A stretch of DNA of 64,000 nt. Source: an uncultured Eubacteriales bacterium (GTDB taxonomy: Bacteria; Bacillota; Clostridia; Peptostreptococcales; Anaerovoracaceae). How positions within the stretch are numbered: position 1 is the first letter of the stretch; each line of letters starts with the position of its first letter. Positions 3,601 through 60,739 of this stretch are shown piece by piece. Under the pieces are notes generated by a model. That model did not search any database. It was not told where the DNA came from and was given only the letters and a program-made list of their open reading frames with translations. Where the stretch lies: positions 6,189 to 70,188 of the forward strand of contig CACZAM010000006.1 in NCBI GenBank assembly GCA_902779185.1, read 5' to 3'. Both the position numbers and the translations under genes were made by a program.

Positions 3601-6600
3601 ATCTCCACTGAATGCGAAGTCATCTTCTGTGTACAGAGGGTTGCTGATGCTGGTTACAGTGTAGCCTGTGACAGTCTTCTCTATACCATCGTACTTCTTG
3701 CTTCCGGAATTCTCTGTGATCGTTACAGTGACTTTGTCAGTTAAAGCAGTGACCGTCAGAGTTCCCTCAGCCTTTTTGATATCATAGTTGGCCGCCTCTG
3801 TGCCTTCATTCAGTGTGTAAGTGAATTTGTTAGCACTGCTGCCTTTGTCGATCTGGCTTCCTGTCACATCATATGTTGCGCCTTCGCCTGTAACGAATCC
3901 ATCGCCGCCTACTGTAACATTGCTGTTTGTAAGTGCTGTTCCATCATACTCCTTAGAATCAGTAGCCGATGTAAGCGTCACAGTTCTCGGCGTGATCGTA
4001 AGTGTGCCCGGCGTATATGTAACTGAATAGTAGCCTGGGATACCTGTGATAGCCGCCTGCTCTGTTTCAGTCAGATAATTCCTTGGGCTTTCCGACACAC
4101 CGGTGATCGATGGAGCATCACCAAGAACTGTTTCAATAGCAGCCTTGTCAGCATCCAGAGCGCCTTCGATTGTGTATTCACCATCAAGAGCCTTGCCATC
4201 GTACGTCTTGCTGTCAGTCTTGGCAGTAATTGTCAGAGGCAGTGTGTAGTAAATAGTTATAACATTGCCACCAGTTGATACAGTTACTTTCTGTGATGGA
4301 TCGTAACTGTCAACAGTCAGATCCATGCTCTGATATGTGGTTACCGGCTGTGCAGTGTACTCTGATCCGATTGTTAAGGTAATCCTTTCATCATCTGCAA
4401 CCTGAGTAGTCGTTCCTTTCAGGTAGTGATGAACTGTAACTGCAGCCTTGTTCTGTTTGAAGTAAACACTAAGGACAGTGCTGCCGTTTCCGTCTACTAT
4501 GCCGGTCCAGGCTTCCTTCCTGGTTTCATCCAGCAAATACGTTGCATCGTCTGGCACCTTGTCATCTGAGGTTACAGAGACCTCAGTGCCAGTCAGCGCC
4601 TGACGGGTAACGCTTTTTGCTTCTGTACCCGGATATGTACCATCATCGTTCATATAAAAGTACTTTACAGTGTAATTGACTTTCACCGCTTTCCATACAG
4701 CATACATGCCGTCATAAGGGGTATTTTCGTCTGCAAAAACTCCAGTTGCAGTTTTTGTTTCCTGATTGCTGGCAGTATATGTATATCTGTTGTTATCCTT
4801 GTCAAATGTAAGGTACAGATCGCCCTCGCCTACATCATATGTATAGTAGGTCTCCGTTTTATCAGGATTTGTTTCAGGCTTTCTTGCCCATCCGAGGAAC
4901 TCATACCCGGCACGCGAAGGTGCATCCGGAATAGTTACTGTTTCGTTGATAGCAAGGTCATCATCACTTCTAATGATTCCGTCAGCACTATTCGTATAGT
5001 TGTTGTACCAATAGATGTGTGTCGGCGTTGCATCTTCTGCCGAGCCATACTGAGCACGAAGCTGTACAGTGTATGTGGCGGACTTTATTGTTGTGCCATC
5101 CTCCTCGTATTCTATCCCGGTGATCTGCGCGTCTTCATATTTGACTGTGAATCTGTCACCCGCAAAGACTCTCTGATCTGTGTCTACATAGTCACCCTGA
5201 CCGTCTTCGCCTGCCTCCGGATCCCATTTCTGTACGACCCAGTACTGGAAAGCCAGCTGCGTCTCGCCTTCCTGTGCATCCGGAGCCCTGGCTGCCGGAC
5301 GTGCAATGGCCTGTGCCTGATCTGAATACATGTTTGGATCAATAGGCGCACCGCTGCCCACTACCTCATTACCGTCACCGTCCTTTCCGGTTGCGGTATA
5401 TGTGACATTGATACCGTCAGCGCCATCGAGTATCCTTCTCCAGCTTGCATACAGATTGATCTCTCCGACAGTTCCAGGATAATTTGTCTTGTCATATCTG
5501 GAGTCTGTACCGTCCAGATTGTAGAGCTCACCATACTTTCCAACGGTGGTACTATTTACAACAAAGGCGTCAAAATCCCACACTTTGCTGAGTTTCTCAT
5601 TGGTAAACCATCCGATAAGATCATACAGCTGACGCTCACCGCCTACATTTCCGACTTTTTCACCATTATCGGTATAGAAGGTGTCATTTGTCGGCTGCCC
5701 ATCTGTTGATCCGTAATAGCCAGCTCCATTTTCGTCAACGTATTTAAAAGTAGTATCACCATCTTCTCTCGGATGAAGCGTTACTTTAAACTCTTTAAGC
5801 ACCCACTTAGCATATACGGTAATACCGTCTTCAGGCATAGTAGTGAAGGTGTATTTCTTTGTACACAGATCATCAGAGTACCAGCCAAGGAAGACATAGT
5901 TAGAGCCGTCTGCAATCTTATTTGTCGGATCGTATTCATTATACTCACTGACATCTTCCTGGTATGTGATGGCATTGTCATCCTGAAGCGAATACAGAGT
6001 ATTCGATTTGTTATTCTTGATGATATTATGTCTGCCATCCTCATAAACACCATCTTTGAAAAGGATAGGGTATTTCACAGGATCATAGAAATAGTATATC
6101 TCACGACCTGTGGTGCCTGAATGCGGGCGATTATCCTGTCTCCCTACAAATTCATATCCTTTATATGAAGGATCATGCTGATCGCCCCACTCCGACCCTG
6201 AATATACATCAATGGTTTCATTCAGGTAGTAAAGATTGTTATTGTATTCTCTTGTATCCTCATACGAGGCACCCGTCTGTGCTTTAAAGTAAATGTAATA
6301 CTTATACTCATTTGGTCTGGTGTTATACTGAGCAATAAGATAGGCATCCGGTTTCGAAAGATCTCCAATGATCTGCTCGTCCAGAATGGTAAGCTTACCT
6401 TTTACCGTGCTTCCTCCATTGCCGCCGGTCCTCGCCTTTGCTCCAGGCATAAGGATCCAGCTGTTAAGATACTCGTTATTAGCGGCACCGCCGCCAACCG
6501 CTCTGTAATCATTGAAGTCTCCGTATGCAGGCCACTGACCGCTTATATTTGCTCCGTATTTAGCTGTAATATAAACATAGTAGAACGTTCCTCCCTGATC

Positions 6601-16718: not shown

Positions 16719-18242
16719 TTATTTGTTGTTCTGCATTCTTCTTCTGCTAACGAGGACGATTCCGCATCCAACTACGAGGAGAGAACCGAGAACGTAGAAG
16801 ATAGTTGTTCCGATACCACCAGTTGCTGGAAGCTCTGCGCCAGTCTTGTTGACAACTACTACTGGAGTAGCTGCAAGCTCTTCAATTGACACGATTACAT
16901 CAAAACCAGTTTCAGAATGCTGATCAATCGGATTACCATCTGCATCGAAGTACGTAGTTGTATTTGTTGTTGTAGAACCTGTCTGTACTGCTTTTACAGA
17001 AACAGGACCCGCAAGCTTGTTATATCCTGCCGGTGCTTCGGTCTCAGTAATGCTATAATCGCCAGTTGCAACACCCTTTACGATGATCAGACCTGAATCA
17101 GGAGTTGTAAGCTCATTTACAAGACCATCACCAGCTGTTGTTCCTGCATATACATAAGCGCCATCAGCAGCAGCTGTTGCCTGTACATAGAATGGAAGCT
17201 TGAATTTTGCACCTGCAAGAGGAGCACCTGCCTGGTCAACTTTCTTGAGAGCAATGGCATAAGTGTAAACAGTTTCAGTTACAGGAATCTCATATGGCAC
17301 TGGCTGCCCATCTGTAACATAGGAAAGTGTTACACTATTTGTGTTACCATCTCCATCAATGGCAGCAGAAGCAGCTACTGTGGCTGTATATGTAATTGTA
17401 AGAGTTGCACCGTTTTTATAGAGTGATTTACCAGCTGTATCAACCCAATCGATTTCGATCTTTCCATTAGCATCGAACTGAGGAGAATATGCACCAGCTG
17501 TTGTTGTTCCAATGTCAGTTCCACCAACTTTAACGGAAGTAACCTTGACATCAGTCAATACACCATTTGCAAAATCATCTTCGATGATGTACTTCGTAAT
17601 TGGCTTTTCTCCATTCTCAAAGTTTGCGGTATCGAAAGAAACTGTATAGGTTACAGTCTGTCCGATGAATACGTCGTCATCATCAGCAGTCTTCTTAGGG
17701 TTATTGATCGGAGGTGTGGTGTTCTTGTCAATAACCTTGGCAACCGGATTTGTTGAATCAACAGTCAGAAGAGCCTGTCCCTGTGTGGTTGTGATAATAT
17801 AGTATCCATATGGAAGGCCTGTGAAATTAAGTGGCTTTGTACCATCACTTTCTGCGGATTTTGTCACATGTGCCGCTGCCCATGTTTTCAGAGCATTCTG
17901 AGTATTTGTATCACTCAGATCCAAATCATCTGCAGCAGTAATACCAAGAGTGTCATCTGTTCCGTTTACATACTTAAAATAAGCACTTAATTCTGTCGGG
18001 ATTGTCCCTTTATAAGCAATAGAGGTGCTAACTCCCTCTGTTGTAGTAGTTTTGCTTACTGTCGCATCAAACAGCTTAGCGACTGCGTAAGTTTCTCCAC
18101 TTGCCGGATTTGAGATTGTGATTGTTGCATTATCTTCGTCCGCTGGACTAAGCGGAACATCCTGCGCAAATACAGTTGCACTCATTGCCAGTACCATGAT
18201 TGTGGACAGTACCAGAACGAGAACTTTGCTAAGTTTCTTCAT
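16719..18242 (-). CDS. Major pilin, LPXTG (LPATG) isopeptide-type fimbrial subunit
   Basis: Signal peptide MKKLSKVLVLVLSTIMVLAMSATVFA. E-box-like GDYSITETEAPAGYNKL. Sorting signal ELPATGGIGTTIFYVLGSLLVVGCGIVLVSRRRM. It lies immediately upstream of the class C sortase. Confidence 0.9.
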   Translation of the reverse strand: MKKLSKVLVLVLSTIMVLAMSATVFAQDVPLSPADEDNATITISNPASGETYAVAKLFDATVSKTTTTEGVSTSIAYKGTIPTELSAYFKYVNGTDDTLGITAADDLDLSDTNTQNALKTWAAAHVTKSAESDGTKPLNFTGLPYGYYIITTTQGQALLTVDSTNPVAKVIDKNTTPPINNPKKTADDDDVFIGQTVTYTVSFDTANFENGEKPITKYIIEDDFANGVLTDVKVTSVKVGGTDIGTTTAGAYSPQFDANGKIEIDWVDTAGKSLYKNGATLTITYTATVAASAAIDGDGNTNSVTLSYVTDGQPVPYEIPVTETVYTYAIALKKVDQAGAPLAGAKFKLPFYVQATAAADGAYVYAGTTAGDGLVNELTTPDSGLIIVKGVATGDYSITETEAPAGYNKLAGPVSVKAVQTGSTTTNTTTYFDADGNPIDQHSETGFDVIVSIEELAATPVVVVNKTGAELPATGGIGTTIFYVLGSLLVVGCGIVLVSRRRMQNNK

Positions 18243-18532
18243 GAGTTTTTCCTTCCTTTCATGCCCTCTCGGGGCGATTTTCTATGACCCTTCGGTCGTT
18301 GATCGGAGCGGGCCTTAGTGCCTGCCCATTCTGTCTGACCTTACGGTCATAGTTTTGCCCTTTAGGGCTAGTTTCTAAGTGCCGCGTTTGCGGTCGGTTT
18401 ATTCTGCAAAGTCACCCCTGCAGCCGGGTCCGCTTGCCGCGGCGAGGCCTGTTCCTATTCTGTAAGCCCGGATCAGTGGGCTTCCCTCGTGCACGGCCTA
18501 GGGTTCGTACGCACACAAGGCTTTGTTAGCTT
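18243..18532 (-). ncRNA. Long GC-rich structured 5' leader of the pilin mRNA (candidate cis-regulatory RNA, class unassigned)
   Basis: There is a 323-nt gap between the signal peptidase and pilin genes, with no ORF. Minus-strand hairpins with stable loops include TGACC-GUAA-GGTCA (18336-18349) and GACC-GAAG-GGTC (18286-18297), plus GCCC-UAAA-GGGC, CCGC-AAAC-GCGG and AGCCC-N8-GGGCT. In addition, CTATGACC (rc of 18345-18352) is perfectly complementary to GGTCATAG (rc of 18282-18289), giving mutually exclusive folds. Confidence 0.4.
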
Positions 18533-18561
18533 ATTTATCTTCAATGGCTTATGCCAGTGAA
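18533..18561 (-). promoter_or_regulatory. Candidate sigma-A promoter for the pilin leader (TTCACT-17 nt-ATAAAT)
   Basis: Minus strand gaaTTCACTggcataagccattgaagATAAATaagc. Spacing counted as 17 nt. Confidence 0.3.
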
Positions 18562-18565
18562 TTCG

Positions 18566-19186
18566 TTAATGTATTGGACCTATTCTATTGAGCGGCCACA
18601 CTCTGAAAACGATCCTGCCGACCACCTGCTCTGATGTTACGCATCCGATTGCCATATGACGCGAGTCTATCGATACATCTCTGTTGTCTCCAAGTACGAA
18701 TATCCTCTCGTCAGGCACCTGATAAGGGAAGTCTATATCAGGTTCACCAAATGCTTTTTTATCCAGATACGGTTCTTCGATCTGTACTCCATTTACATAG
18801 ACATTTCCTTGCAGATCTATGTCTACCCAGTCGCCGCTATTCGCAATAACTCGCTTCACCAGAATGTTGTTGTTGTAGTAGAACGCTATGACATCGCCTG
18901 TCTTGAAATGTGCGTTCTTGACTGATACAACCAGCTCGCCGCTGACAAGTGTACTGTTCATCGACTGTCCGTAGATCCTCAGCACCGGCAGGAATAGCAT
19001 TGCTACCAGTATAGCCATTGCCGCTACTACGATCAGGATGTTTGTAGTGCTGACGATGGACTTGCGCAGCCTGTCCCTGAACGAGACCTTGTCGTAGGCT
19101 TCCTGGATCACTTCGGTTGATGGCATTTTGACTGTTCCGCTCTCCACAGCCTCCATGGCCTGCTGAAGCATCTTATTCGTCGCCAT
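18566..19186 (-). CDS. lepB: Signal peptidase I, LepB (bacterial S26A) type
   Basis: TM segment ILIVVAAMAILVAMLFL, then GQSMNSTL (Ser), ILVKRVIANSGD (Lys), VFVLGDNRDVSIDSRH. Start chosen at MATNK (ATG 19186) behind AGGAGG. It overlaps the preceding ORF by 14 nt. The longest ORF starts at 19240. Confidence 0.9.
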   Translation of the reverse strand: MATNKMLQQAMEAVESGTVKMPSTEVIQEAYDKVSFRDRLRKSIVSTTNILIVVAAMAILVAMLFLPVLRIYGQSMNSTLVSGELVVSVKNAHFKTGDVIAFYYNNNILVKRVIANSGDWVDIDLQGNVYVNGVQIEEPYLDKKAFGEPDIDFPYQVPDERIFVLGDNRDVSIDSRHMAIGCVTSEQVVGRIVFRVWPLNRIGPIH

Positions 19187-19457
19187 GGCGCCTCCTGACA
19201 TTATCCAGGTAGATATTGGCGGCTTTCTCTGCCTCCTCAAAGATCTTTGTCACTGCCAGTGAGGCCTCTGCTATCGAACCGATCTTGCTGAATTCGAATT
19301 CTCTGTTTGCCAGCTGCGACTCCAGATCTATAATTCTGGCGTTTAGCTTATCTATCTCTTTTCCCTGTGCCAGCATGATCTCAAGAAGTTCTTTCTTCTT
19401 CATCTTTGTGAGATCTAGCTCATCTGGCTTTGCTTTCTCTTTTCTGTCTGATCTCAT
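19173..19457 (-). CDS. 94-aa coiled-coil protein of unknown function, translationally coupled to lepB
   Basis: ORF with heptad-like K/E/L-rich sequence (KKKELLEIMLAQGKEIDKLNARIIDLESQLANRE). No TM segment or signal peptide. Confidence 0.55.
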   Translation of the reverse strand: MRSDRKEKAKPDELDLTKMKKKELLEIMLAQGKEIDKLNARIIDLESQLANREFEFSKIGSIAEASLAVTKIFEEAEKAANIYLDNVRRRHGDE

Positions 19458-19541
19458 TCGAAATCATTATTCCTTTCTTGTTGCTATCTGCATATCCCAA
19501 CTGTCATTCAAGATGGCAGCTCGGATCCGCAGATATGATGT

Positions 19542-19574
19542 TACCGGGCACGGGCGCATTACCCGCGCCCGGTA
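19542..19574 (-). terminator. GC-rich hairpin after the tip-adhesin gene (no U-tract)
   Basis: TACCGGGC...GCCCGGTA outer stem (8 bp) plus an inner CGGG/CCCG stem, seen directly in the sequence. Confidence 0.35.
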
Positions 19575-19600
19575 TTCATATTTAATTGTTGTTTAAAGGA

Positions 19601-22600
19601 TTATTTCTCTTCAGATTTCATCCTTCTTCGTGCTACCAGCACAACTCCACATCCAACTACCAGCAGTGAGCCGAGTACATAGAAGATCGTAGTGCCGATG
19701 CCACCTGTGGTAGGTAATGGAGTACCAGCTGTATTCGTAATATTGATCTGGTAAGCACCATTACTATTGATAGAGGCTTGTGTCGGTTGACCAGATGTTC
19801 CCTGTGTATAGCTAACTCCATCTGCACTGACAGTTATTGTGCTAGGATTTTCAAGCTTGGCATATCCAGCTGGAGCAACGGTCTCTTCAAGCTCATATGC
19901 GGTTTCTCTAACCGGTAATGTAACTGTTCCGGTGTATCCGTCAGGGCCTGATGTAATTGTGCTTCCGTTCAATGTGAACTGTGCCCCCTCAAGAGCTGTT
20001 CCATCCTGCGTATCAGTCTTATATACCTGAACAATCTGTCTGTTTCTGGTGTTGGTATACTTAACAGTCATGTTTCCGTCCACCGTCAGATTACCGGTAT
20101 CGGTTCCAGTAACATTAGTAGTTGTGTTATCAGCCTTTGTTACTACTATAGATGTATCAAATGCCTGAACCGGTGTTTCTGCAACCGAGAAGACTGTTCC
20201 ATATGGGATTTCTGTATACTCTTTCTTTCCTTGATCAACAAGTTGGAATGAGTCTGCAGATGCGGTCAGTCCTGTAGCAGTAAAGCTGAACTCAGTTGTC
20301 TTATCAGTGCTATTGCCTACTACAGCCTTCTCGACAGTTACTTTATAGCGCTCACGCGGGTTAACTACATTGATGGTGTAAACGCCATCAGAGTCAGGAC
20401 CAGATATGGAGAATTTGCCAGTATCTGCATCCGCTACCTGTACAGATATGCCAGTAGATCCGACAGTTACGGTATTACCATCGCTAAGACCCGTGTAATG
20501 ATCGATCGGAGTTTCCGTTAACGCATATGGGTCGTCACTTGCATTTACATCAATTACATCAGTATATCCATTCGAACCTGTTTCAACACTCTGACCAGCA
20601 AGGGTGAATCCAACTCCCTCAAGCGGAACAGCCGGATCGGAATCATCGACCTTGTAGAACCTGATCTTCTTAGCTTTACGCGTATTCGTAAATGTTATTA
20701 CAGTGTCACCTTGAATCTGTATTGATGATCCATTTACAAGGTCAGCTATTGGAACATCTACTTCCTCATCAGCTTCGTTTGTAGTTTTGTATGAGCCTTC
20801 AACACTGATTTCGAAATCAGGATTTTCAGCTTCAGTAAAGCTGACTGTGGTACCAAGGGAGAGATCTTTATAAACCTTAGTTTCTGTATCAGCTAACTGG
20901 AACGTGTCTAACGGTGTTACTCCTGTTGGAGTAAATGTAAACTTTGTGGTTAAATCATCACCTGCGCCTACAACAACCTTTTTAACCGTTACAGTGTACA
21001 GTTTCTCCCATACAGCATACATGTCGTGATATGGTGTTATTTCGTCAGCTGCGACCCCTTTGGCTGTTCTTACAGTTTCACCATCTTTATCAATAAAGGT
21101 CCATGTGCCATCATCATGAGGGGTCAGATAGACATCATCCTTAGTCAAATTGAGAACATTCGCTTGTGGTACAGGCTCGCCGTGACTCTGGGATTGTGTT
21201 GTTGGAACGCGAGCCCATCCAAGGAATTTGTAGCCTTCACGAGTCGGGGCAGGATATATACTCGTCGCCTGGTTGATCTGCAGATTTTTATCCTGATGGA
21301 TCGCGTAGTTGTCACCATAGTTCGGATACCAGTCGATATGTGTCGGAGTCTCATTACCCTTATCCAGATAAACCGCCTTCAACTGGATTGTGTAAGTTGC
21401 CTCTGAAATATATGGGAATCCAGTTGGTCCGGTAATTTCATCCTTTCCAGAGTAAACAGCCGGAGTGCCGTCTGTTGAGGTTACTGCAGTATTGTCTTTT
21501 GCGGACTTCCATTCAGTAACTACGACCTTCGAATCATTCTTCAGTACCTCGAAATCACCGCCAGGGAATACTACAACTGACGTGTCCTCATATTCTCCTG
21601 TTTCATTGTTCCATGTTTGTAGTACCCAATGGTCGAAAGTCTTATTTTCCGGCGGAGTTATATCAGCAGACTGGGCAGCTGCATGAGCAGTGTCCTTATA
21701 TAATGTTTCATCCTCAACGTTTCCTGTACCTCCGTCAAGTTCATAGATAATGCGTATTCCAGGCGCACCAGGAATCTCTTTACGCCATCTGCCGTAAAGA
21801 TCTATTTTCTTTGTGATCCAGAAACGATTTCTAGGATTACCATACTGGTCCTGAACATCAGAGTTCCAGGTAGCGCCTTCGCCCCACTTATCCATCACAT
21901 CTGTCATGTCTACGGCTTTGTTATACGCTACTGTATTGTCATCAGTAAGTTTCGTTTCTTCGTTGTATGGTGCTCCACTCTCCGTGAACCAACCAGCAAA
22001 CTCATAACCGCTTCTGGTTCCGAAAGGCAAGCTGATTGTGCCGAGATAGTCAATACGGAAGTTCAATGCCTGGTCATCGGAACCCCAATCCAATGTCATG
22101 TCTTTTTTAGTTGGATCGTCATCAATATATGCATTTGGATGCAGGAATGCACGATACTGTATTCTATGCCACTTAGCGTATACTATGATACCGTCCAGAG
22201 GCATGGTATCCCACGGATAAGGTACTGTGCATCCTTCATCAAGATACCAACCCTCGAATACATATCCTGCTTCAGGCGGCTCAGGTATATAATTTCTGTA
22301 CTCGTCTGCAATCACTGCACCAAAAGGTATTTCTGGGCTTTCATGCAAAAGTTGTCCGGCCTTGTTCTGAATAGTAGTTTCACCACTAGATGTATCGCCT
22401 ACATAGTTTCCATCAAAATATTCAATTTTAAATTTCTGACGATTGTAAACATAATTCAGATGATACAGCGTTGGATTGTTGCCGGTGGTCCAATAATTAC
22501 CAACTTTACGCCCATTATCATCTAAAGTAGTAAGTGTGGACGAAGCCGGCCAGACTCCCTGATTGTTCTGCCCTAATCGCAGCTGATAATCAAATCCCGT

Positions 22601-25219
22601 ATACTTTGGTTCATTCTGGTTTCTTGGTGTCGTATTACTCGAACGAACTGTCAGAACAGTCTCCTCATAATAAGTCTTGCCCTCGTAGGTATATGTGTTT
22701 TTATCTGAATAATCTTCTCCTTCAACGGTTTCAAACCATATATGATATCTCCAGTTGTAGTAACTATCCGGGAAACGAATTACTACATAATTGCCATCAG
22801 CATCATTCAAAGCGCCAAGAATGTTCTCATTCATGACCGTTATGACGCCTTTAACAGTACCGTTACCATCACTCGTTGGGTTCGGTTTTAGCTTCGTCCC
22901 GACCATCATTACAAAGCTAACTGCCTGACGCCCGTTTGCTCCTGTAATCTTGTCGTATGTAGGCCACTTTGAACTTATATCCTCCCCATAGTAAGCGGAT
23001 ATCGTGAAGTAATAATATGTCCTTCCGCCAACCGTCTCGGATTGTATTGTATAGCCATTAACTGATGGATGAGCATCTTGATTAGAATGCCATGTTACAA
23101 GATCGTTTAGCGCCCTACCATTACCCGAGTTGTTCGCATAATCATACCGGTTATTCTGAGTTCCATCTCTATACAGATAGAACTTGAACTCATACTCAAT
23201 CCTGTCGAAATACAGATTCAGTACCGCATCACCTTCCGGCGTAATCGCTACCTCTTGATTCTTGCTGGCTTCTGTTAAGCAAAAGCCCATATAATGTCCA
23301 TTGTCGTAAACATTTGTGCCGCTAGAATCTTCGCCTACTCCAGTCACATAGTCCTCATCGCCATTATCTACAAATGTATAAGGGATATTCTGACCAACCT
23401 GACCATGTTCATTTACCCAGGAATCTGCAACCTCATAGCCAGTTCTGTTTGTATTCTGCGTCCAGCAGATTACCATGTAAGGAGCTTCCGTATTCTTAAT
23501 CCAACCGGCATACACATGAGTACGATCCGTAATAGGATTTCCAAATTCAAATGGAGTTGTGCAGCCCTCATCAGCATACCATTTATCAAATGTATAGCCG
23601 GTGCGCTCCATCTCTTTGGTAGGCTTGACTGTGTTTTCACCAGATTTTACGAACTGAGGTGCAATGTATGTACCCTTATTCTCATGGAAAATCAGCCACT
23701 GACCTTCAGGTGCGTTTACAGAGAAAGTCACACTTCCACTAATCGTAATCTCATCCTCATTTTTATAAACTTTTCCTGAAGTCCATCCATCGATATTGTT
23801 GCCGCCTTCTTTGACCAGCCAGCCCTCAAAATTATGGGTTGAATCCGCAGAGTACGACATATTTACAGTATAGCTGAATGATTCCGGATCACTTGGTGTC
23901 CTAAGGAAGGCATCTGTTCCAAGAGCAACACCACCATCTCCCAGGTAGGTTACGTCAACGACTTTATAGATTGCAGCATAGTAATTCTTAACATCGCCTT
24001 CCGTTATGCTGTCTGCTGCAGTAATTTCCTTGATATCGTCACGGATAGCATCAATAGTCTTTCTCGTCGATGTGGCAGTATAGTTAGAATCCTCCGTCCA
24101 TCCCAGGAAGCTCCAGCCTTCAGGGATTTCGCCTGTACCAGGGTCGAAGATGATCTTCTTCAGTTCTGCCATATCATCATCGGCATTCTTGACATACATT
24201 GTTTTGATCAGTGTTGTGCCGTTGTAGAAATTGACTGCCATGCGGGCATTGTCTCCGCCTCCGCCCGGCTCTACCACTGCATATACCGAAAATCCATCCG
24301 TCTCAAATGAAGCTGCAGTCATCTGGTCGTCTGCATTAACAGTGGTTTTAACACTATTTGCATCAGAGTCGAGAACTTCCGGCTTAACTTTGCCGTTGTT
24401 TTGTTCAGCAAAATGCACGATGCGAACGTTATCTGCATCGCTTACCTTGATACCCTTATCGAATGCGATTTTGACGTTAACCGTATCCTCAGGCTCAACA
24501 GAGTCTTCCAGCATATCGGACTCAAGTGAGATATCATAGAATTTGATCATCTTGATATCAGTGATTCCACTGTTCTCTTCCTGAAGAACCTTAAGAACTT
24601 CTTTGTAATACTTTTCGTAATCAAAGTCCTTAGTGTTTCTATCCAGTTCCGAAGCTACGATATTAACGTCTTCAGGTAACTTGGCACTTTTGCCGACTTC
24701 TGCGGTCACTGTAAAATCGTCACCTTTGGCCTTCCTTGCCTCAAGTGTCTTGTTTGATGTCAGAAGTTTAACCTCATCATTTTTGCTGTCTTTTGACTCT
24801 TTTGCAGCTTTGGCATTGTCACCTTTGTCATCTCCTGCATCTGTAGCCTTGACATCATTCTCTTCCTTGACTTCGCCAGGAGTGACTGTCTCTTCGACAT
24901 TGTCGCCTTCGTCACCTCCTGCGTCTGTATCCTTGACATCGGTCTCTTCCTTGACTTCGCCAGGAGCGGCTGTCTCTTCGACAGTCACGCTATCCTCAGA
25001 TGCCTCTGCATCAACTTCCGCTGTAGTCTCTTCTACAGCTATGTCGATGCCACCTTGCTGTGCCGCTTCTTCCTGGTCGAGTGTGAATGCCGGGAGTACC
25101 AGCAGATAAGTTGTCGTGAACACAACAATCGCTGCCAGTGTTACTACCAGCGATTTAAGGTTCATCTTTTTCTTGAGCTGCGCCAGAAACGCTCTCATCT
25201 TGTCTGGAGTTGGCCTCAT
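19601..25219 (-). CDS. 1872-aa LPXTG surface protein, probable pilus tip adhesin
   Basis: N-terminal signal-anchor ...VVFTTTYLLVLPAFTLDQ. Listeria-Bacteroides-type repeats (GYTFDKWYADEGCTTPFEF...VYAGW). C-terminal pilin-like modules (FYKVDDSDPAVPLEGVGFTLAG; YKTDTQDGTALEGAQFTLNG; YELEETVAPAGY). The sorting signal LPTTGGIGTTIFYVLGSLLVVGCGVVLVARRRM is almost identical to that of the pilin. Confidence 0.9.
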   Translation of the reverse strand: MRPTPDKMRAFLAQLKKKMNLKSLVVTLAAIVVFTTTYLLVLPAFTLDQEEAAQQGGIDIAVEETTAEVDAEASEDSVTVEETAAPGEVKEETDVKDTDAGGDEGDNVEETVTPGEVKEENDVKATDAGDDKGDNAKAAKESKDSKNDEVKLLTSNKTLEARKAKGDDFTVTAEVGKSAKLPEDVNIVASELDRNTKDFDYEKYYKEVLKVLQEENSGITDIKMIKFYDISLESDMLEDSVEPEDTVNVKIAFDKGIKVSDADNVRIVHFAEQNNGKVKPEVLDSDANSVKTTVNADDQMTAASFETDGFSVYAVVEPGGGGDNARMAVNFYNGTTLIKTMYVKNADDDMAELKKIIFDPGTGEIPEGWSFLGWTEDSNYTATSTRKTIDAIRDDIKEITAADSITEGDVKNYYAAIYKVVDVTYLGDGGVALGTDAFLRTPSDPESFSYTVNMSYSADSTHNFEGWLVKEGGNNIDGWTSGKVYKNEDEITISGSVTFSVNAPEGQWLIFHENKGTYIAPQFVKSGENTVKPTKEMERTGYTFDKWYADEGCTTPFEFGNPITDRTHVYAGWIKNTEAPYMVICWTQNTNRTGYEVADSWVNEHGQVGQNIPYTFVDNGDEDYVTGVGEDSSGTNVYDNGHYMGFCLTEASKNQEVAITPEGDAVLNLYFDRIEYEFKFYLYRDGTQNNRYDYANNSGNGRALNDLVTWHSNQDAHPSVNGYTIQSETVGGRTYYYFTISAYYGEDISSKWPTYDKITGANGRQAVSFVMMVGTKLKPNPTSDGNGTVKGVITVMNENILGALNDADGNYVVIRFPDSYYNWRYHIWFETVEGEDYSDKNTYTYEGKTYYEETVLTVRSSNTTPRNQNEPKYTGFDYQLRLGQNNQGVWPASSTLTTLDDNGRKVGNYWTTGNNPTLYHLNYVYNRQKFKIEYFDGNYVGDTSSGETTIQNKAGQLLHESPEIPFGAVIADEYRNYIPEPPEAGYVFEGWYLDEGCTVPYPWDTMPLDGIIVYAKWHRIQYRAFLHPNAYIDDDPTKKDMTLDWGSDDQALNFRIDYLGTISLPFGTRSGYEFAGWFTESGAPYNEETKLTDDNTVAYNKAVDMTDVMDKWGEGATWNSDVQDQYGNPRNRFWITKKIDLYGRWRKEIPGAPGIRIIYELDGGTGNVEDETLYKDTAHAAAQSADITPPENKTFDHWVLQTWNNETGEYEDTSVVVFPGGDFEVLKNDSKVVVTEWKSAKDNTAVTSTDGTPAVYSGKDEITGPTGFPYISEATYTIQLKAVYLDKGNETPTHIDWYPNYGDNYAIHQDKNLQINQATSIYPAPTREGYKFLGWARVPTTQSQSHGEPVPQANVLNLTKDDVYLTPHDDGTWTFIDKDGETVRTAKGVAADEITPYHDMYAVWEKLYTVTVKKVVVGAGDDLTTKFTFTPTGVTPLDTFQLADTETKVYKDLSLGTTVSFTEAENPDFEISVEGSYKTTNEADEEVDVPIADLVNGSSIQIQGDTVITFTNTRKAKKIRFYKVDDSDPAVPLEGVGFTLAGQSVETGSNGYTDVIDVNASDDPYALTETPIDHYTGLSDGNTVTVGSTGISVQVADADTGKFSISGPDSDGVYTINVVNPRERYKVTVEKAVVGNSTDKTTEFSFTATGLTASADSFQLVDQGKKEYTEIPYGTVFSVAETPVQAFDTSIVVTKADNTTTNVTGTDTGNLTVDGNMTVKYTNTRNRQIVQVYKTDTQDGTALEGAQFTLNGSTITSGPDGYTGTVTLPVRETAYELEETVAPAGYAKLENPSTITVSADGVSYTQGTSGQPTQASINSNGAYQINITNTAGTPLPTTGGIGTTIFYVLGSLLVVGCGVVLVARRRMKSEEK

Positions 25220-26047: not shown

Positions 26048-26785
26048 TTACCAACCCATCACCTGTGCAAATACCTCACCGATCTTATCATGGATCACCA
26101 GATCAGCCCTGCTGTCTGCACTCGTTGAGCTCATGTTGATCAGCACCAGCTTTTTGCCGTGGAAGTAGTGGATGAGTCCCGCGGCCGGATACACGATGAG
26201 AGTTGTACCTCCTACTATGAGTGTATCGGCATTCGAGATAGCTCTTACTGCTCCGTCAATCACATCGCTGTCGAGTCCCTCTTCATACAGAACAACATCA
26301 GGCTTGATCCTGCCGCCGCACTTGTCGCAATACGGAACGCCCTTTGACTCCAGCACTTTCTCGAGTCCGTAGTACGCATGGCATCTCTCGCAGTAGTTGC
26401 GCAGTGTCGATCCGTGGAGTTCCCACACAACCTTGCTGCCCGCCTTCTGATGCAGACCGTCGATGTTCTGTGTGACAACAGCTTTCACCTTGCCCTGCCG
26501 CTCGAGCTCGGCCAGAGCTTTGTGGCAGTTATTCGGCTGCGCGTTTTCGTATATGAGCTTGTCCTTGTAGAACTCATAGAAATCTTCGGTGTGTCTCATG
26601 TAGAACGAGTGGGATATCATCTCCTCAGGCGAGACCGTTCTGCCGAGGTCCTGGTTATAAATCCCGTTGGCGCTCCTGAAGTCAGGGATGCCGCTCTCTG
26701 TGGACACGCCTGCGCCGCCAAAGAATACGATATTATTGCTCTCGTCGATTATCTTCTTTAATTCCTTGATCTTATCGTCCATATC
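26048..26785 (-). CDS. cobB: NAD-dependent protein deacylase (Sir2/CobB family)
   Basis: GAGVSTESGIPDFRS, VTQNIDGLH, Zn-ribbon cysteines (CERCHAYY...CDKCGG), GTTLIVYPA. Start placed at MDDKIKELKK (26785). The longest ORF starts at 26833. The stop is 7 nt from the start of SipW copy 2. Confidence 0.9.
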   Translation of the reverse strand, partial: DMDDKIKELKKIIDESNNIVFFGGAGVSTESGIPDFRSANGIYNQDLGRTVSPEEMISHSFYMRHTEDFYEFYKDKLIYENAQPNNCHKALAELERQGKVKAVVTQNIDGLHQKAGSKVVWELHGSTLRNYCERCHAYYGLEKVLESKGVPYCDKCGGRIKPDVVLYEEGLDSDVIDGAVRAISNADTLIVGGTTLIVYPAAGLIHYFHGKKLVLINMSSTSADSRADLVIHDKIGEVFAQVMGW

Positions 26786-26908
26786 CGACCGCCTTTCCGT
26801 ATAACCCTGCTGCTGTATCTTTTTCGCCATCATTATACCACCATTTGCATTCCTATTGCTCTATTCCAAAGACAGCAAATTCATGCGCTTTTTTGCGCTA
26901 TTTTGAAA

Positions 26909-29215: not shown

Positions 29216-29373
29216 TGTTTCGTCCCTTTTCTTTCCGCCCGTATCCCCTCTGACTTTCGAAGTTCTGTTTTTCAACATTCTTCCCGGTCTCGCGAAATTC
29301 CCCGGGCCTTACGTAGTTTCAGCGCAACGGCCGATTGCACTGTTATGTATAACGATATCGATTCATATACTTT

Positions 29374-29409
29374 TGTATTACTGTATTAACTACTTAGTAC
29401 AATAGTACA
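29374..29409. promoter_or_regulatory. Candidate YtrA-type operator: inverted repeat TGTATTACTGTA ... TACAATAGTACA
   Basis: The two 12-mers are reverse complements at 10 of 12 positions and lie ~160 nt upstream of the GntR gene. They contain GTAC-N4-GTAC. Confidence 0.35.
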
Positions 29410-29563
29410 AAGATGCTTCCCTGTCAACACCTTTTTTGGATATTTCCAGATATTTGGAGTTTGTCTTCTGCGGTAAATCGTTAACGCTACCAGAATCGTA
29501 GCATTACCACGATGGAGCGAGCTGATGCAAACTAAAAGGAGCCTCTATGAGATGATGGGAACT

Positions 29564-29603
29564 AAAAAAGGAGCAGCTGATATTGAAATCAGGGAGCTGC
29601 TCC
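29564..29603 (-). terminator. Rho-independent terminator closing the TIR island
   Basis: Minus strand GGAGCAGCT-N16-AGCTGCTCC followed by TTTTTT. It lies 28 nt after the stop of the 131-aa ORF. Confidence 0.65.
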
Positions 29604-29630
29604 CAAGCATCGTCTTTCGTGTTTAGTTGT

Positions 29631-30026
29631 TTATATAAATATTCTTTCTGAGTCTGTATCTGAACTGCCATCACGATAAGCAGTGTTCATGGTGTGTGAT
29701 TGTGAGCGGAGGTTAACGAGATGTTCAATACTCTCTACGAATCCTTGATCGCTCGTGTTCTGATAGAGAATTCTAATTGTGTCTACATGCGTGACATTCC
29801 ATGAATAGTTTCGGATCTCTCTAAGCATGCCCATATCGAGTTGGAAGCAGCTTTTCATATTATCTGCAGGCACTATTATCTCAACATTTCTACTATCTAT
29901 ATATATAGTGGCGCCCGGCAATCTCATATGAACATACTTCTCAAGCAGATCAGCATTTCTGTAACCAAAGAGATTCTCAAGATAAGCCGTAAAAACTTTA
30001 TAATACCCCTCTCTTACACCAGGCAC
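29631..30026 (-). CDS. Hypothetical protein (up to 131 aa), AT-rich island gene 3
   Basis: ORF only. No ATG exists upstream of the GTG at 30026 (in-frame TAG at 30080-30082), and the RBS is weak. An internal ATG (MRLPGATIY) is an alternative start. I recognise no motif. Confidence 0.45.
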   Translation of the reverse strand: MPGVREGYYKVFTAYLENLFGYRNADLLEKYVHMRLPGATIYIDSRNVEIIVPADNMKSCFQLDMGMLREIRNYSWNVTHVDTIRILYQNTSDQGFVESIEHLVNLRSQSHTMNTAYRDGSSDTDSERIFI

Positions 30027-30112
30027 TTCCGTTTTCAGAAGATCTTTTACATGCTCAGGATACGATGAGCGGATACTCTATAAATCTTGCAGTCTTCTAC
30101 TGTTTATCATTT

Positions 30113-31201
30113 TCATTTATCTAAACGTATATGAGCATCGTTTACCAAATCAACAATCTCAATGAAGTTGCTGTACTTATACTTGATATCTTCCAATGCA
30201 TTAGAGGAAGTAGTATTTTCTATTTCTTCCTTTACCTGCTTGAAAAGCGTTTCTTTTTCTTCATTGGTTATTGGTATGAAATAATCATATCCGGAAGACT
30301 GTAACGACCGTATCTCCATTTCCATTTCGTTTTCGAGATACTCTGTTCTGTATCCTAAAGGCTCAAGATTTGTGGTCTTTTTCTCACAGTCATATCTTCC
30401 ATGTGACCAGCCCCGTTCATTCATTGCTTTTCCGTACAGCATCTGTGCTTTTTCAAAAATTTCAATAGGGTCAGAGTTGTCACCAAATATCTTAATTCCC
30501 ATCGTGTAATCTTTAGGATATATTTTTCCTCCCGCAGCTTCAGCAATCAGGAAAGTACGGAGAGCTCTGTGTTCTGCATTTATTCTTGTCTCCTTTGAAA
30601 ACTCTTCAGGACCAGGATCCTTGTAAGCGTTCTTTAACAACATCTCTGCAATCATGCCTAAGTTCTCGTTGTTTATTTCCAGAGGGTCGTAATTATCGGT
30701 TTTTTCATTATTCCTTAAGATTGATGGTATCTTAAACCCATATGCGTTGAATGCTGTTGCATATTTGTATATATACTCTTCTTCATTCATGTTGTACTTC
30801 AGAATCGCCTGAATTGAACTCATCCTGAGCTTTAATCCACCCTTGAGTGCTGTTTCTTTTAAATATATAGCAATGATCGGCAGCTTATCATCGAGTGCAA
30901 AGTAGATTTCGTCTCTGCAGTTCTGGGATTCGACAGATTCAGGAGTAATAAACACTACAAAAAGAGTGCAGTTTTCAAGAGCATTTGCAATCTCATCTTC
31001 CCATTCGTTGCCGGGAGCTATTCCCTCGTCATACCAGATATTGTAGCCTTGTTTATTCCACCTATTGATTTCAGCAAAAACAATATCTGCGTTATTATGA
31101 GCATAGCTAACAAAAATATACGGCTCATCTCCGCGATACGCCGGAAAGGGAATTCTGCCGATTCCCGGTATCAGCTTACTATTAGATGAATTAATTTCCA
31201 T
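30113..31201 (-). CDS. TIR-domain protein (362 aa) with an unassigned ~210-aa C-terminal domain
   Basis: N-terminal PAYRGDEPYIFVSYAHNNADIVFAEINRWNKQGYNIWYDEGIAPGNEWEDEIANALENCTLFVVFITPESVESQNCRDEIYFAL is a bacterial TIR signature, including the conserved Glu (E98, codon 30908-30910). RBS GGAG lies 10 nt upstream. The C-terminal part has a GWSHGRYDCEKKT segment. Confidence 0.85.
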   Translation of the reverse strand: MEINSSNSKLIPGIGRIPFPAYRGDEPYIFVSYAHNNADIVFAEINRWNKQGYNIWYDEGIAPGNEWEDEIANALENCTLFVVFITPESVESQNCRDEIYFALDDKLPIIAIYLKETALKGGLKLRMSSIQAILKYNMNEEEYIYKYATAFNAYGFKIPSILRNNEKTDNYDPLEINNENLGMIAEMLLKNAYKDPGPEEFSKETRINAEHRALRTFLIAEAAGGKIYPKDYTMGIKIFGDNSDPIEIFEKAQMLYGKAMNERGWSHGRYDCEKKTTNLEPLGYRTEYLENEMEMEIRSLQSSGYDYFIPITNEEKETLFKQVKEEIENTTSSNALEDIKYKYSNFIEIVDLVNDAHIRLDK

Positions 31202-31349
31202 ATCTGTTTTCTCCTATCCATATAATAATTACTGCTTCAAGCGCAGAGATGTATCAAAATGTGGCATATTCTACCGGACCGCGTGCTTAGCTTCGGAGCA
31301 CACGCCCTACACGGTATTCATTATAGCAAAAGAGGCCGCTACAGCAGCC

Positions 31350-31380
31350 TTGATAATAATATTTATTCTGCACAGATTGC
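31350..31380 (-). promoter_or_regulatory. Terminator-like hairpin (31363-31380) immediately followed by an extended -10 box TGCTATAAT (31350-31358) ahead of the TIR gene
   Basis: Minus strand AGGCTGC-TGTA-GCGGCCT CTTT TGCTATAAT. An 8-bp GC-rich hairpin (31310-31334) lies in the resulting 5' UTR. Confidence 0.4.
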
Positions 31381-31386
31381 ATTTTA

Positions 31387-31656
31387 TTACAATTCCATAG
31401 CCTCCCGTTGCAGCTGTCTTAACATCTCAGCACATCGCTCAACATCCTCCAAATCTTCAGGTTCATCACCCCACCAGAGATGCTGAAGTTCGGGGCAATC
31501 CATAAGCTCTATAATACTAGAATCAAAGACATAGTTATTAAATGCATTAAGCGCTTTAATAAAAAGGCGACGGATTTCTATGTCTCCTGCCTGGAATATC
31601 GGCACTTCCCCACTTATTATCTGTTCCTGTCTTTTAGAGTATTTTGTGAAGTCCAT
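31387..31656 (-). CDS. Hypothetical 89-aa acidic protein, AT-rich island gene 1
   Basis: ORF with a strong RBS (ctaGGAGGattaacATG). No TM segment or signal peptide, and no motif I recognise. Confidence 0.6.
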   Translation of the reverse strand: MDFTKYSKRQEQIISGEVPIFQAGDIEIRRLFIKALNAFNNYVFDSSIIELMDCPELQHLWWGDEPEDLEDVERCAEMLRQLQREAMEL

Positions 31657-31864
31657 AGAGTTAATCCTCCTAGTACGATTGTACTTGAATCTCCCCTAAT
31701 AATCCGCTCCAAATATTTCTTACAGGAACATAGTAGCAGCCGCACACAGGCTCGTATAGAGAAACCCACATAAAAGAGCTTTATGAGCCATCTCAAAGAA
31801 AGCGAAAAGACCAGGCTTCGCTAAATCGTGAAACCCGGCCTTTATGTTTTACGTTGAAATGCGA

Positions 31865-32026
31865 TTAAAAATCGTCGTTCTTTTTTACCAGGCAGTATAT
31901 CCCCAGCATGAGCCACAGGACTGACGCGACAAGATACCCCCAGCTATGTCCGCGAAAGAATGACAGTAAGCATCCGATAAACGCAATGAAATAAAGTGCT
32001 GCCACCGCTTTATTGTTACTGAACAT
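31865..32026 (-). CDS. 53-aa small membrane protein (not in ORF track)
   Basis: ATGTTCAGTAACAATAAAGCG... = MFSNNKAVAALYFIAFIGCLLSFFRGHSWGYLVASVLWLMLGIYCLVKKNDDF, with two hydrophobic segments. GGAGGTG lies 8 nt upstream, 15 nt after the adh stop. Confidence 0.5.
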   Translation of the reverse strand: MFSNNKAVAALYFIAFIGCLLSFFRGHSWGYLVASVLWLMLGIYCLVKKNDDF

Positions 32027-56306: not shown

Positions 56307-56939
56307 CTATTCTTTAAGGTGTATTCTCCAACCTGTATCGATCTTTTCTTTCACTGTTTTCATTGTTTCAGGATCAAGCTTAGGCCAATCAACTACCTTA
56401 GTTGCTTTGTCCTTTACCAGATGCGCTTTTTCGGCGCATAAGGCGATCGGAGTATCTGCCAATGAATCGGAATAGAAATTCTCGATCACCGGGAAGCCAT
56501 TATCGATCATATATTTTGCCTTTTCCCTGGCATACATAAGATTGTTTGTAAAGACTCCATATTCACGATCGAATTCAGTTGCCATAAAGCTGACTCCAAG
56601 CCTTTTCGCGATCGGTTCGATAATACAAGTTGGAGACGCGCTTATAATGAGATCGTCCTCCCTTTTTTGCGCAAGATACCACGCGGATATCTTGCTTTCA
56701 TATTTATCCCAATACTTTTCTATTTGCACATCAAAATCATCTATCATTGTAAGATAGCTGAACATTTCACGCTGTAGCCGATAGTTCAACACTTTGCCTC
56801 GTTTGTATAAGACAAGTGTCTTCATCATGCGCGGAAACCAGGTAACCCATAGTTTAGGATTGCGTTTCATGCACCAAAGAGCAAAGCCTATTGAGCAATC
56901 CGAATAAAAAATCGTACCATCAAAATCGTAAACATTCAT
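56307..56939 (-). CDS. HAD-superfamily hydrolase
   Basis: MNVYDFDGTIFYSD (DxDGT motif I), and later SASP and YSDSLADTP. Start at 56939; the longest ORF starts at 57002. Confidence 0.8.
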   Translation of the reverse strand: MNVYDFDGTIFYSDCSIGFALWCMKRNPKLWVTWFPRMMKTLVLYKRGKVLNYRLQREMFSYLTMIDDFDVQIEKYWDKYESKISAWYLAQKREDDLIISASPTCIIEPIAKRLGVSFMATEFDREYGVFTNNLMYAREKAKYMIDNGFPVIENFYSDSLADTPIALCAEKAHLVKDKATKVVDWPKLDPETMKTVKEKIDTGWRIHLKE

Positions 56940-57051
56940 AATTGCTTCGATGAATTCCAAAATGCCAATCTTTTCATCTATGTTTAATAATAGCATAATC
57001 AACGCAAAATAAATGCCCTGGAGTTATTCCAGAGCATTCGCTGTCTCACGA

Positions 57052-57678
57052 TTAAAAAATCTGTCCCGGGAGTTTCAGTTTCTCCTTAAATGGAAATGCG
57101 CTGTCGAAAGCTTCGACATCTTTGTCGTCCACATAATACCCACTTGGGGTCTGATACACCCCTGTGATCCCATCGAGATACCCCGGGATCAGCTCTATAC
57201 ATAGAAAGAATGAGTCATCTGCGCCTTCGGGCAGATCATGGTATCTGATGCCAAAGTTACGGGCGTAGCCAAAGCCGCTTTTGCCGTAGAAGTCGATATT
57301 GCCTTCAAACAAAACTGCGCCAAATCCCATTTCTCCGGCCTTATCAAGAGAATAGTCGAGCAGCAGCTTGCCGTAGCCTTTGCGTTTGAGCTCCGGCGCG
57401 ATGCAGATCGGTCCCATCGTCAGCACATCGATATCGCTGCCATCGTCCGAATTGATCACAGTTCGCATGAACATGTTCTGTCCTATAAGCTTACCGTTTA
57501 TTTCCATAACAAAATCAAGTTCCTTCACGAAGGCGGGATCATCGCGAAGCACATGGATCACATAGTGTTCACTGCAGCCCGGCCTGTAAATGTTCCAGAA
57601 CGACTCTCTTATAAGATTCTCTACTTCTCTGTAGTCTTCTTTCTTTTCTAAACGTATCTTTGCATTATTTATGTTCAT
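57052..57678 (-). CDS. GNAT-family N-acetyltransferase
   Basis: 208 aa. IAPELKRKGYGKLLLDYSL is a typical acetyl-CoA-binding motif A. Confidence 0.85.
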   Translation of the reverse strand: MNINNAKIRLEKKEDYREVENLIRESFWNIYRPGCSEHYVIHVLRDDPAFVKELDFVMEINGKLIGQNMFMRTVINSDDGSDIDVLTMGPICIAPELKRKGYGKLLLDYSLDKAGEMGFGAVLFEGNIDFYGKSGFGYARNFGIRYHDLPEGADDSFFLCIELIPGYLDGITGVYQTPSGYYVDDKDVEAFDSAFPFKEKLKLPGQIF

Positions 57679-57690
57679 GGCTAATCCCTG

Positions 57691-58116
57691 CTAATTTGTC
57701 TTATTCTGAAAAGCTTTGAGCTGGTCTGTCATCTCCTGCGCTGTTTTCTGATCCATCTTATACCTGATAAGCAGAACACCGAAGTAGATCACAACTACAC
57801 TGACAGCTACAGCAACAGCCTGCGGGGTAAACTCACTAATATGTCCTCTGAAAACCATTGCTTCGACGATCGCCAAAATGATGATCAATTGAATGATATT
57901 GCGGATCAGCACCTGCCTTACGCTAAGTTCCTTGTTAGTGTACATGACGAAACTCGGAATACAGGCAAGAAAGCCGTAAATCAATGGATAGATCATTACC
58001 TCGTAACCGAATGTCTGATCGGGAGCAAACAGGGAACCGGTCACATACATTGCGGCAATGATAAGCACCGTGCTTATGAAGAAGTTTTTTGCTGTTTCTC
58101 TTAACCGTTCTTTCAT
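57691..58116 (-). CDS. DUF3021-like four-TM membrane protein
   Basis: 141 aa with 4 hydrophobic segments, directly downstream of a LytTR regulator (a common gene pair). Confidence 0.65.
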   Translation of the reverse strand: MKERLRETAKNFFISTVLIIAAMYVTGSLFAPDQTFGYEVMIYPLIYGFLACIPSFVMYTNKELSVRQVLIRNIIQLIIILAIVEAMVFRGHISEFTPQAVAVAVSVVVIYFGVLLIRYKMDQKTAQEMTDQLKAFQNKTN

Positions 58117-58120
58117 CTTG

Positions 58121-58558: not shown

Positions 58559-58564
58559 ATCTCA

Positions 58565-59929: not shown

Positions 59930-60066
59930 GATTGGCTCCTTTCAAATATCTTTCTCCATTTGACTTCTTTCTTTGATTGCCTGTTTCGAGTGTAAAAAAA
60001 GAAGAGGCTATTCTTCAATAGCCTCAGCGGTAAGATGCATTTTGGGTTGGTGAAATGCAATGACCA

Positions 60067-60691: not shown

Positions 60692-60739
60692 TCAGGATTA
60701 AAATGCAATATTTTGTTTCTCGCAAATGCTTGATATTTA

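Follow-up and report, generated by a model that had tools for sequence, protein, structure and literature searches.

A 64,000-nucleotide window of contig CACZAM010000006.1, from an uncultured Eubacteriales bacterium, contains a minus-strand gene for a 362-aa protein in which a TIR domain is followed by a C-terminal domain (CTD). We found this gene to be a solitary, horizontally mobile, promoterless cassette, because the DNA shared between its unrelated genomic contexts is the gene alone and a related genome retains the corresponding empty site. With middling confidence, we propose that this single autonomous mobile gene encodes a cytoplasmic, stand-alone defence protein of the TIR NADase type, whose divergent RyR-like CTD would serve as a sensor and oligomerisation domain. 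A TIR domain and a sensor joined in one gene on mobile DNA is an already known architecture. What is new is the strictly gene-sized mobility of the unit and, according to structure prediction, a very rare CTD whose best and only structural relatives appear to be the Repeat12 (R12) domains of RyR proteins. The mobile unit comprises:

30078-31222, minus strand: promoterless cassette of 1,145 bp, delimited by blastn (ribosome-binding site (RBS), TIR-CTD gene and 35-nt tail)
31211-31215, minus strand: AGGAG RBS of the TIR gene, 9 nt 5' of the ATG and within the cassette, read from the sequence
30113-31201, minus strand: 362-aa TIR-CTD gene, from the open reading frame (ORF) list
30722-31117, minus strand: TIR domain (~aa 29-160), with a Glu at the catalytic position (E98, codon 30908-30910)
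30116-30709, minus strand: CTD (aa 165-362), predicted to consist of a RyR/Repeat12-like helical core (~aa 178-302) and a C-terminal three-helix extension
Within the CTD core, minus strand: motif A252-L279, with G264-W265, G268, D271 and K275

The identical 362-aa protein is encoded in 144 indexed blocks of ruminant-gut metagenome assemblies, where it occurs in two unrelated contexts. Context (a) is that of the window, in which a GH13 gene, an iron alcohol dehydrogenase (Fe-ADH) gene and a 53-aa gene are followed by an islet that holds the TIR gene, and then by a GntR/YtrA-ABC operon. In context (b), the gene is found between a CDF transporter gene and HSP33. The only DNA common to the two is the cassette itself, which spans from 21 nt 5' of the ATG to 35 nt past the stop codon, is 99.5% identical between contexts, and has the same end points in all examined context (b) contigs (L003-L007, L125-L130; blastn). 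In the longer context (b) contigs, the TIR gene ends a 4.7-kb AT-rich phage-derived remnant (L125:5171-9911; also L126-L130 and L003-L007), composed in order of a 257/273-aa ORF, an HNH endonuclease gene, a Terminase_4 small terminase gene, the TIR cassette and an N-terminal metK fragment. The shorter context (b) contigs are deletion variants; the L003 type has a 2.3-kb deletion, and L003 carries an insertion of an IS256-family transposase gene. In both hosts, the TIR gene is richer in AT than the DNA on either side of it. At the cassette ends, no target-site duplication, inverted or terminal repeats or adjacent recombinase were found. An integron gene cassette was considered and rejected: the 35-nt 3' tail has no significant structure (z = 0.05) and no attC-like fold, and there is no integrase in the flanks. 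An apparent duplication of the 3' end of the cassette in L010 (3675-3818; also in L033) corresponds to a scaffold N-gap that joins the context (b) right flank to context (a), an assembly ambiguity that arises because the same cassette occurs twice in one metagenome.

Homologues of 56-89% identity occupy five further contexts that have no neighbour in common. One of these is a conjugative-element defence island (L022:2764-17089), where an 85% homologue is accompanied by AAA_25, NikA, a relaxase, a Phd antitoxin and a giant DUF4062 protein (more than 1,270 aa). The island also encodes a second TIR protein (TIR_2, 313 aa) beside a 175-aa Nuc_deoxyrib_tr-like protein, and this pair might itself be a Thoeris-like system. 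Elsewhere, the homologue lies directly after a TIR-LRR_5 gene (L014:5841-9116), beside a DUF4379 protein, beside HTH and GNAT genes, or in a prophage-like region with a tail-sheath-initiator gene (L122). Across these diverged contexts, only the gene itself is homologous to the window at the nucleotide level, with an upstream reach of 16-17 nt at most; for the 82-86% identical homologues, the homology runs from 16-17 nt 5' of the ATG to the stop codon.

The empty site is found in a related genome (L064) that has neither the TIR gene nor the ORF that follows it in the window. Synteny is otherwise kept (GH13, ADH, orf53, a 283-aa gene, GntR, ABC, permease, SIR2), with amino acid identities to the window of 94% for ADH, 98% for the ABC ATPase and 87% for GntR, and homology ends at window position 31872 and restarts at 29448. 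The first-pass annotation of the window had suggested horizontal acquisition, and the empty site together with the same gene in unrelated contexts bears this out. In other context (a) contigs, window positions 31734-31393 are swapped for a 1.6-kb segment with a 283-aa gene on the opposite strand. The site that separates the ADH gene from the GntR operon is thus occupied by a variable islet. Versions of the 283-aa gene (L008:1602-2453; L064:5165-6016, 59% amino acid identity) are present in most contigs with context (a) synteny and not in the window, where the ORF89 segment takes the place of the gene. At its C-terminus, the encoded protein resembles the PADLOC candidate PDC-S68 (E 5.5e-15), and this part looks PD-(D/E)xK-like by eye. 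In the window, the islet has the following features besides the cassette:

29449-31864, minus strand: AT-rich variable islet, GC 0.396, between the conserved 53-aa gene (31865-32026) and the GntR-operon promoter (29427-29399)
31387-31656, minus strand: ORF89 (89 aa), outside the mobile unit
31320-31350, minus strand: upstream signals, a terminator-like hairpin (31350-31333, dG -11.3) and then an extended -10 element TGCTATAAT (31328-31320), outside the cassette
29631-30026, minus strand: ORF131 (131 aa, GTG start), an orphan, site-specific ORF of uncertain coding status
29564-29603, minus strand: intrinsic-terminator-like hairpin with U6, 3' of ORF131 (9-bp stem, 16-nt loop; dG -17.9 kcal/mol, z = -2.7)

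All three minus-strand ORFs of the original description are present in this islet of ~2.4 kb, at the coordinates given there, and the proposed AT-rich character relative to the flanks is seen both in 500-bp windows (GC 0.37-0.41 over 29250-31999 versus 0.47-0.57 in the flanks) and in the third-position GC (GC3) of the TIR gene (0.387 versus a window ORF mean of 0.573). With a GC of 0.380 (z = -2.7), the 362-aa gene ranks lowest among the 41 window ORFs that reach 150 aa, whose mean is 0.503 (sd 0.046). The composition break is clear, not unique, with further low-GC genes at 56.3-57.0 kb and 60-63.4 kb. The GGAGG assigned to ORF89 was read at 31670-31666, 9 nt 5' of its ATG, and the proposed hairpin and T6 terminator at the other end of the islet folds with the values listed above. 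A hairpin and an extended -10 box were also reported to precede the TIR gene; both are there, ~30 nt away from the reported position (31350-31380, actual 31350-31320). The stretch that contains them (window 31393-31223) is common only to contigs with context (a) synteny and is not found in context (b). An Rfam search of the whole window yielded zero matches.

The TIR domain was identified by a match of aa 29-131 to Pfam TIR_2 (PF13676) that scores 64 bits (cut-off 28), in keeping with the TIR signature noted originally. When the AF2 model was compared with solved TIR structures using Foldseek, RPS4, the B. cereus TIR, TLR1, SPARTA, SARM1 and AbTir were all matched with a probability of 1.0, and the predicted structure is that of a flavodoxin-like TIR fold. 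E98, originally placed at the position of the NADase catalytic Glu, does align with the Glu of the TLR alphaC 'WCxYEL' motif and is kept in 11/11 family members that include the TIR domain. In a local alignment it also pairs with E642 of SARM1, using a SARM1 sequence whose numbering is self-consistent. By analogy, the 362-aa protein would belong to the NAD+-cleaving type of TIR protein and have NADase activity. Comparison with 85-89% identical homologues gives a dN/dS of 0.07-0.08 over the whole gene; taken separately, the TIR domain has 0.027 and the CTD 0.13. Since both domains are under strong purifying selection, the gene is functional. The CTD changes ~3-4x faster than the TIR domain at non-synonymous sites, as sensor domains do.

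Matches of the 362-aa protein to PADLOC and NCBIfam models are all weak and limited to the TIR domain. They include PADLOC ThsB models (E 8e-4 to 0.015), the NCBIfam Thoeris type III ThcB4 model, and a PADLOC SAVED_TIR match that spans TIR residues 28-98 only; the Pfam ThsB_TIR match reaches 30.2 bits against a cut-off of 21.2. No STING, SAVED or CARF domain was detected in the protein by Pfam or PADLOC. With no such sensor and no cyclase in any context, the protein does not qualify as a TIR effector of CBASS, Pycsar or type III CRISPR systems. TIR domains 60-68% identical to this one are found in hundreds of Firmicute proteins from gut and rumen, joined there to other C-terminal modules; about half of the best 120 TIR matches contain LRR_5. 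The pattern is one of a constant effector with exchangeable sensors. The relatives suggest a large uncharacterised clade of modular TIR-sensor proteins in Firmicutes.

The CTD matches no family in Pfam, NCBIfam, PADLOC or PHROGs, in line with its original description as unassigned; at the level of the predicted structure this description no longer holds, as the model matches RyR R12-type domains, with marginal scores. It is also very rare, with 9 representatives among 1.84 billion proteins and 10 clusters among 5.8 billion, of which the full-length ones all carry this TIR domain and the remainder are short fragments. A scan of GTDB genomes found the CTD in two species only, namely in an Oscillospiraceae metagenome-assembled genome (MAG) and in a Clostridiales MAG with an internally deleted copy. 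In MAG RUG11951 (Clostridiales; L038:7492-8293), the TIR-CTD copy (nucleotide identity 82-87%) lacks ~180 bp in its interior and is probably a pseudogene. Weak CTD matches (E 1e-9 to 1e-5) were found at the ends or in the interior of much larger proteins (P0125, P0126, P0128) with LRR_5 repeats, TIR and Sel1 repeats, or PMP repeats and TIR; the CTD may be a shuffled module in such proteins.

RyR R12-type domains bind 2'/3'-cyclic ADP-ribose (2'/3'cADPR), cADPR and ATP, and phage counter-defence proteins use the R12 fold to bind or cleave TIR-made cADPR isomers (2026 preprints PMC13232231; doi 10.64898/2026.06.04.730250). The AF2 model of the CTD alone is confident (pLDDT 89.9, pTM 0.85). In a Foldseek search of the PDB, the best 20/20 matches were RyR Repeat12 domains, a RyR chimera or a RyR-domain protein of B. 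thetaiotaomicron (E from 5e-3, probability 0.99-1.0 for the best). Similarly, 6/12 top matches in BFVD were phage 'Ryr domain' proteins, with E values of at least 0.06. At the sequence level, a RyR profile was built from the sequences of the RyDEP family (PMC13232231 supplement) and validated on animal RyRs (E ~1e-36). Using hhalign, CTD residues 88-115 (A252-L279 of the full-length protein, 'AQMLYGKAMNERGWSHGR-YDCEKKTTNL') were paired with the RyR signature over 28 columns (P 0.005-0.008, probability 5-7%). The score of 23.5 compares with 11.7 +/- 2.0 for column shuffles, and 0/200 shuffles scored as high. RyDEP residues G86/W87/G90, D94 and K98 are kept in the CTD as G264/W265, G268, D271 and K275.

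Several observations weigh against the RyR-like assignment. The TM-scores of the PDB matches are only 0.33-0.38, with an rmsd of ~10 A. No PF02026 match was obtained for the CTD at E values up to 10, and an unfiltered hmmsearch with the validated RyR HMM gave a negligible 0-4 bits. The ligand and catalytic residues of RyDEP/RyR Tad are replaced (H75 by Q253, W78 by Y256 and H100 by T277), and RyDEP D117 falls outside the aligned region. We regard the assignment as marginal. An internal tandem duplication was not detectable in the CTD. On the predicted model, the CTD core (~aa 178-302) would be one divergent RyR-like four-helix unit with a beta-hairpin insertion, and true homology is, in our judgement, somewhat favoured. 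As the ligand and catalytic residues are mostly replaced, the CTD is not a RyDEP-type glycosidase, and any ligand it has may differ from those of RyDEP and RyR Tad. Kinship with PDE10A (profile versus PDB sequences, weak, E 0.024) was judged to be a chance match because the HD metal ligands are absent.

Comparison with the PF02026 proteins RyDEP and RyR Tad and with animal RyR Repeat12 shows the predicted fold of the CTD core to match R12 best, with G-W-x-x-G, D and K kept. The CTD differs from them in that it has no PF02026 match, the catalytic dyad and key ligand residues are replaced, and an extra beta-hairpin and the C-terminal three-helix extension are present. It is also fused to a TIR domain on the cellular side and is not a stand-alone phage sponge. 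Full-text literature searches found no paper that describes a cellular TIR-RyR fusion.

The closest known stand-alone example is SpbK, the TIR abortive-infection protein of B. subtilis ICEBs1, which is activated by TIR clustering (PMC12847820, PMC8880864). Both SpbK and TIR-CTD are encoded by a single gene on mobile DNA with no partner gene, and both combine a helical sensor with a TIR NADase-type domain. The order is reversed, with an N-terminal 4-helix bundle and a C-terminal TIR in SpbK, and the CTD of TIR-CTD looks RyR-like. In domain logic, the ligand-gated TIR effectors are closest: in TIR-STING (PMC9402430), TIR-SAVED (doi 10.1101/2022.05.04.490601) and Cat1 CARF-TIR (PMC12162218), the ligand leads to filaments and NAD+ depletion. 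These proteins have TIR fused to a nucleotide-binding sensor, as TIR-CTD has TIR fused to a putative sensor, and TIR-STING and TIR-SAVED share the order of an N-terminal TIR and a C-terminal sensor. However, all three belong to systems of several genes, in which a cyclase or a CRISPR complex supplies the ligand, while TIR-CTD has no signal-making partner in any context and its CTD is not STING, SAVED or CARF.

By analogy with SpbK, TIR-STING, TIR-SAVED and Cat1, the CTD of our proposal would act as both sensor and oligomerisation module. Its trigger could be a phage component or an adenine/ADP-ribose-type nucleotide, binding of which would cluster the TIR domains into catalytically competent assemblies. 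The clustered TIRs would then consume NAD+ or make a product derived from ADP-ribose (ADPR), and infection would be aborted. Both the defence role and the sensing of a ligand by the CTD are thus put forward by analogy. A role in conflict is fitted, not proved, by the genomic contexts, which include the phage remnant, the prophage-like region, the conjugative defence island, the PDC-S68-like neighbour and the tandem TIR genes. Other observations count against the proposal: mobile-element or defence genes are not obvious in the L119 and L121 contexts, PADLOC has no model for the TIR-CTD family, the residue four positions before E98 is Asn and not the Trp of the 'WxxxE' cyclising TIRs, and the family is tiny and limited to ruminant-gut metagenomes.

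If real, the fusion of TIR to a RyR-like domain on the host side would suggest that the R12 fold is used inside immune proteins too, and the gating of TIR assembly by nucleotide or ligand sensing could be studied in a compact model of just one protein. The cassette also illustrates cleanly, in nature, how a gene of defence type can move as a bare RBS-to-stop unit between unrelated islands. A tentative extension, which we consider doubtful, is that of a one-gene 'signal maker plus signal reader', a cellular TIR NADase/cyclase with a divergent R12-type nucleotide pocket that would be gated by an ADPR-type or adenine nucleotide or by its own product and would spread, as a gene-sized cassette with no promoter, among phage remnants, conjugative elements and chromosomal islets.

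It is unlikely that the CTD is merely a protein-binding sensor of a stand-alone TIR abortive-infection protein, with a RyR likeness that is a coincidence of fold and no nucleotide binding. The precedent exists, since the helical domain of SpbK binds the phage portal (PMC12847820), and the replaced RyR ligand residues, the low TM-scores and the protein-binding LRR_5 and Sel1 repeats of paralogous TIR proteins are all consistent with it. Against this, the Foldseek ranking is strikingly specific for RyR R12 in two independent libraries, and the profile match falls exactly on the RyR signature, above 200/200 shuffles. Should the RyR likeness prove superficial, TIR-CTD would simply add one more ordinary member to the large class of modular TIR-sensor proteins found in gut Firmicutes.

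We also weighed our proposal of an autonomous defence protein against an orphan ThsB-like generator, in which the TIR domain would make a cADPR-type signal for an effector elsewhere and the RyR-like domain might bind the product as feedback. Thoeris ThsB seems to resemble TIR-CTD in its TIR_2/ThsB_TIR-type domain, and has the catalytic Glu and a variable non-TIR part in common with it; the ThsB_TIR score is above its cut-off, the PADLOC ThsB and NCBIfam ThcB4 models give weak matches, RyR domains bind gcADPR (PMC13232231), and homologues lie beside other TIR genes in L014 and L022. However, ThsB has an adjacent effector gene, and a Thoeris effector adjoins the TIR-CTD gene in 0/7 contexts, between which no neighbour is shared. 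Thoeris surveys define systems by the adjacent effector and set stand-alone TIRs aside (doi 10.64898/2025.12.03.692087), so that, apart from SpbK, little has been learnt about how the latter are triggered. A specific effector in trans cannot be relied on by a gene that travels between genomes by itself, and the Trp at position -4 from E98 is missing. We therefore consider such a generator improbable. The absence of usual partners, already pointed out in the first-pass annotation, was confirmed near the TIR gene for ThsA, cyclase, SAVED, STING, NLR and reverse transcriptase (RT), and a cyclase was found in none of the contexts. The SIR2 gene 3 kb away was examined as a ThsA-like partner and rejected: its product is a canonical sirtuin (PF02146, 176 bits), and the gene is part of the conserved core, being retained at the site that lacks the TIR gene.

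A counter-defence role appears very improbable. The gene would in that case be a phage or satellite moron of benefit to the phage, with a RyR-like domain that sequesters host TIR signals and a TIR fold that degrades them or NAD+ derivatives. Phage RyR-domain proteins indeed act against Thoeris as sponges or glycosidases (PMC13232231; doi 10.64898/2026.06.04.730250), an enzyme with a TIR fold that hydrolyses cADPR has been reported (PMC13455253), and the gene is found right after the HNH and small terminase genes in context (b) and beside the tail-sheath-initiator gene in L122. However, these phage-like contexts are decayed remnants fixed in chromosomes, and searches of 2.9 million viral contigs, 50,697 phage genomes and plasmids returned no full-length relative. 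The residues of the sponges and glycosidases are not kept, and the TIR domain groups with abundant cellular TIR-LRR proteins.

The proposal that ORF89, the TIR protein and ORF131 form one acquired three-gene defence or toxin module is essentially excluded by the co-occurrence data: although the ORFs are co-oriented in one AT-rich islet with a terminator at its end, ORF131 adjoins the TIR gene in all contigs with context (a) synteny, and the 35-nt cassette tail shares the reading frame of ORF131, many context (b) samples retain the identical TIR protein without ORF131, which the five diverged contexts lack too, the small ORFs 3' of the TIR gene are different in every context, ORF89 is a probable gene remnant limited to one contig lineage and separated from the TIR gene by a terminator-like hairpin, and the shared DNA is the 1,145-bp TIR unit alone. 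Rather than partners, ORF89 and ORF131 are local debris of a variable islet in the chromosome. ORF89 occurs in no contig lineage other than that of the window, k141_1659457 (L002, L011, L026, L028). Its last 53 aa (aa 37-89) are 75% identical to aa 73-125 of a 125-aa protein (P0130) that lies in a small-gene array, one member of which matches a PHROGs phage protein family. Because its C-terminus matches that of the 125-aa protein, ORF89 is read as probably a recombined remnant of a small phage-like gene and not as part of the unit. ORF131 starts with GTG and has no convincing RBS, and its only relatives are near-identical copies, always at this site. Searches of Pfam, NCBIfam, PADLOC and PHROGs gave nothing for either ORF. 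What some pipelines had called as a 161-aa form of ORF131 is a product of an alternative genetic code, in which an in-frame TAG is read as a sense codon, and is not a real variant. The cassette tail (window 30078-30116) contains a 12-codon ATG..TAG mini-frame (MKMINSRRLQDL and stop) right after the TIR stop codon, in frame with ORF131.

Beyond the islet, the window contains a 2,941-aa ORF (697-9522), a SpaA/LPXTG pilin cluster with low GC3 (16719-25219) and the canonical sirtuin gene (26048-26830). The second low-GC stretch (56307-63406) encodes a HAD hydrolase, an HTH_26 protein and a protein with DUF6273 and LRR_5.

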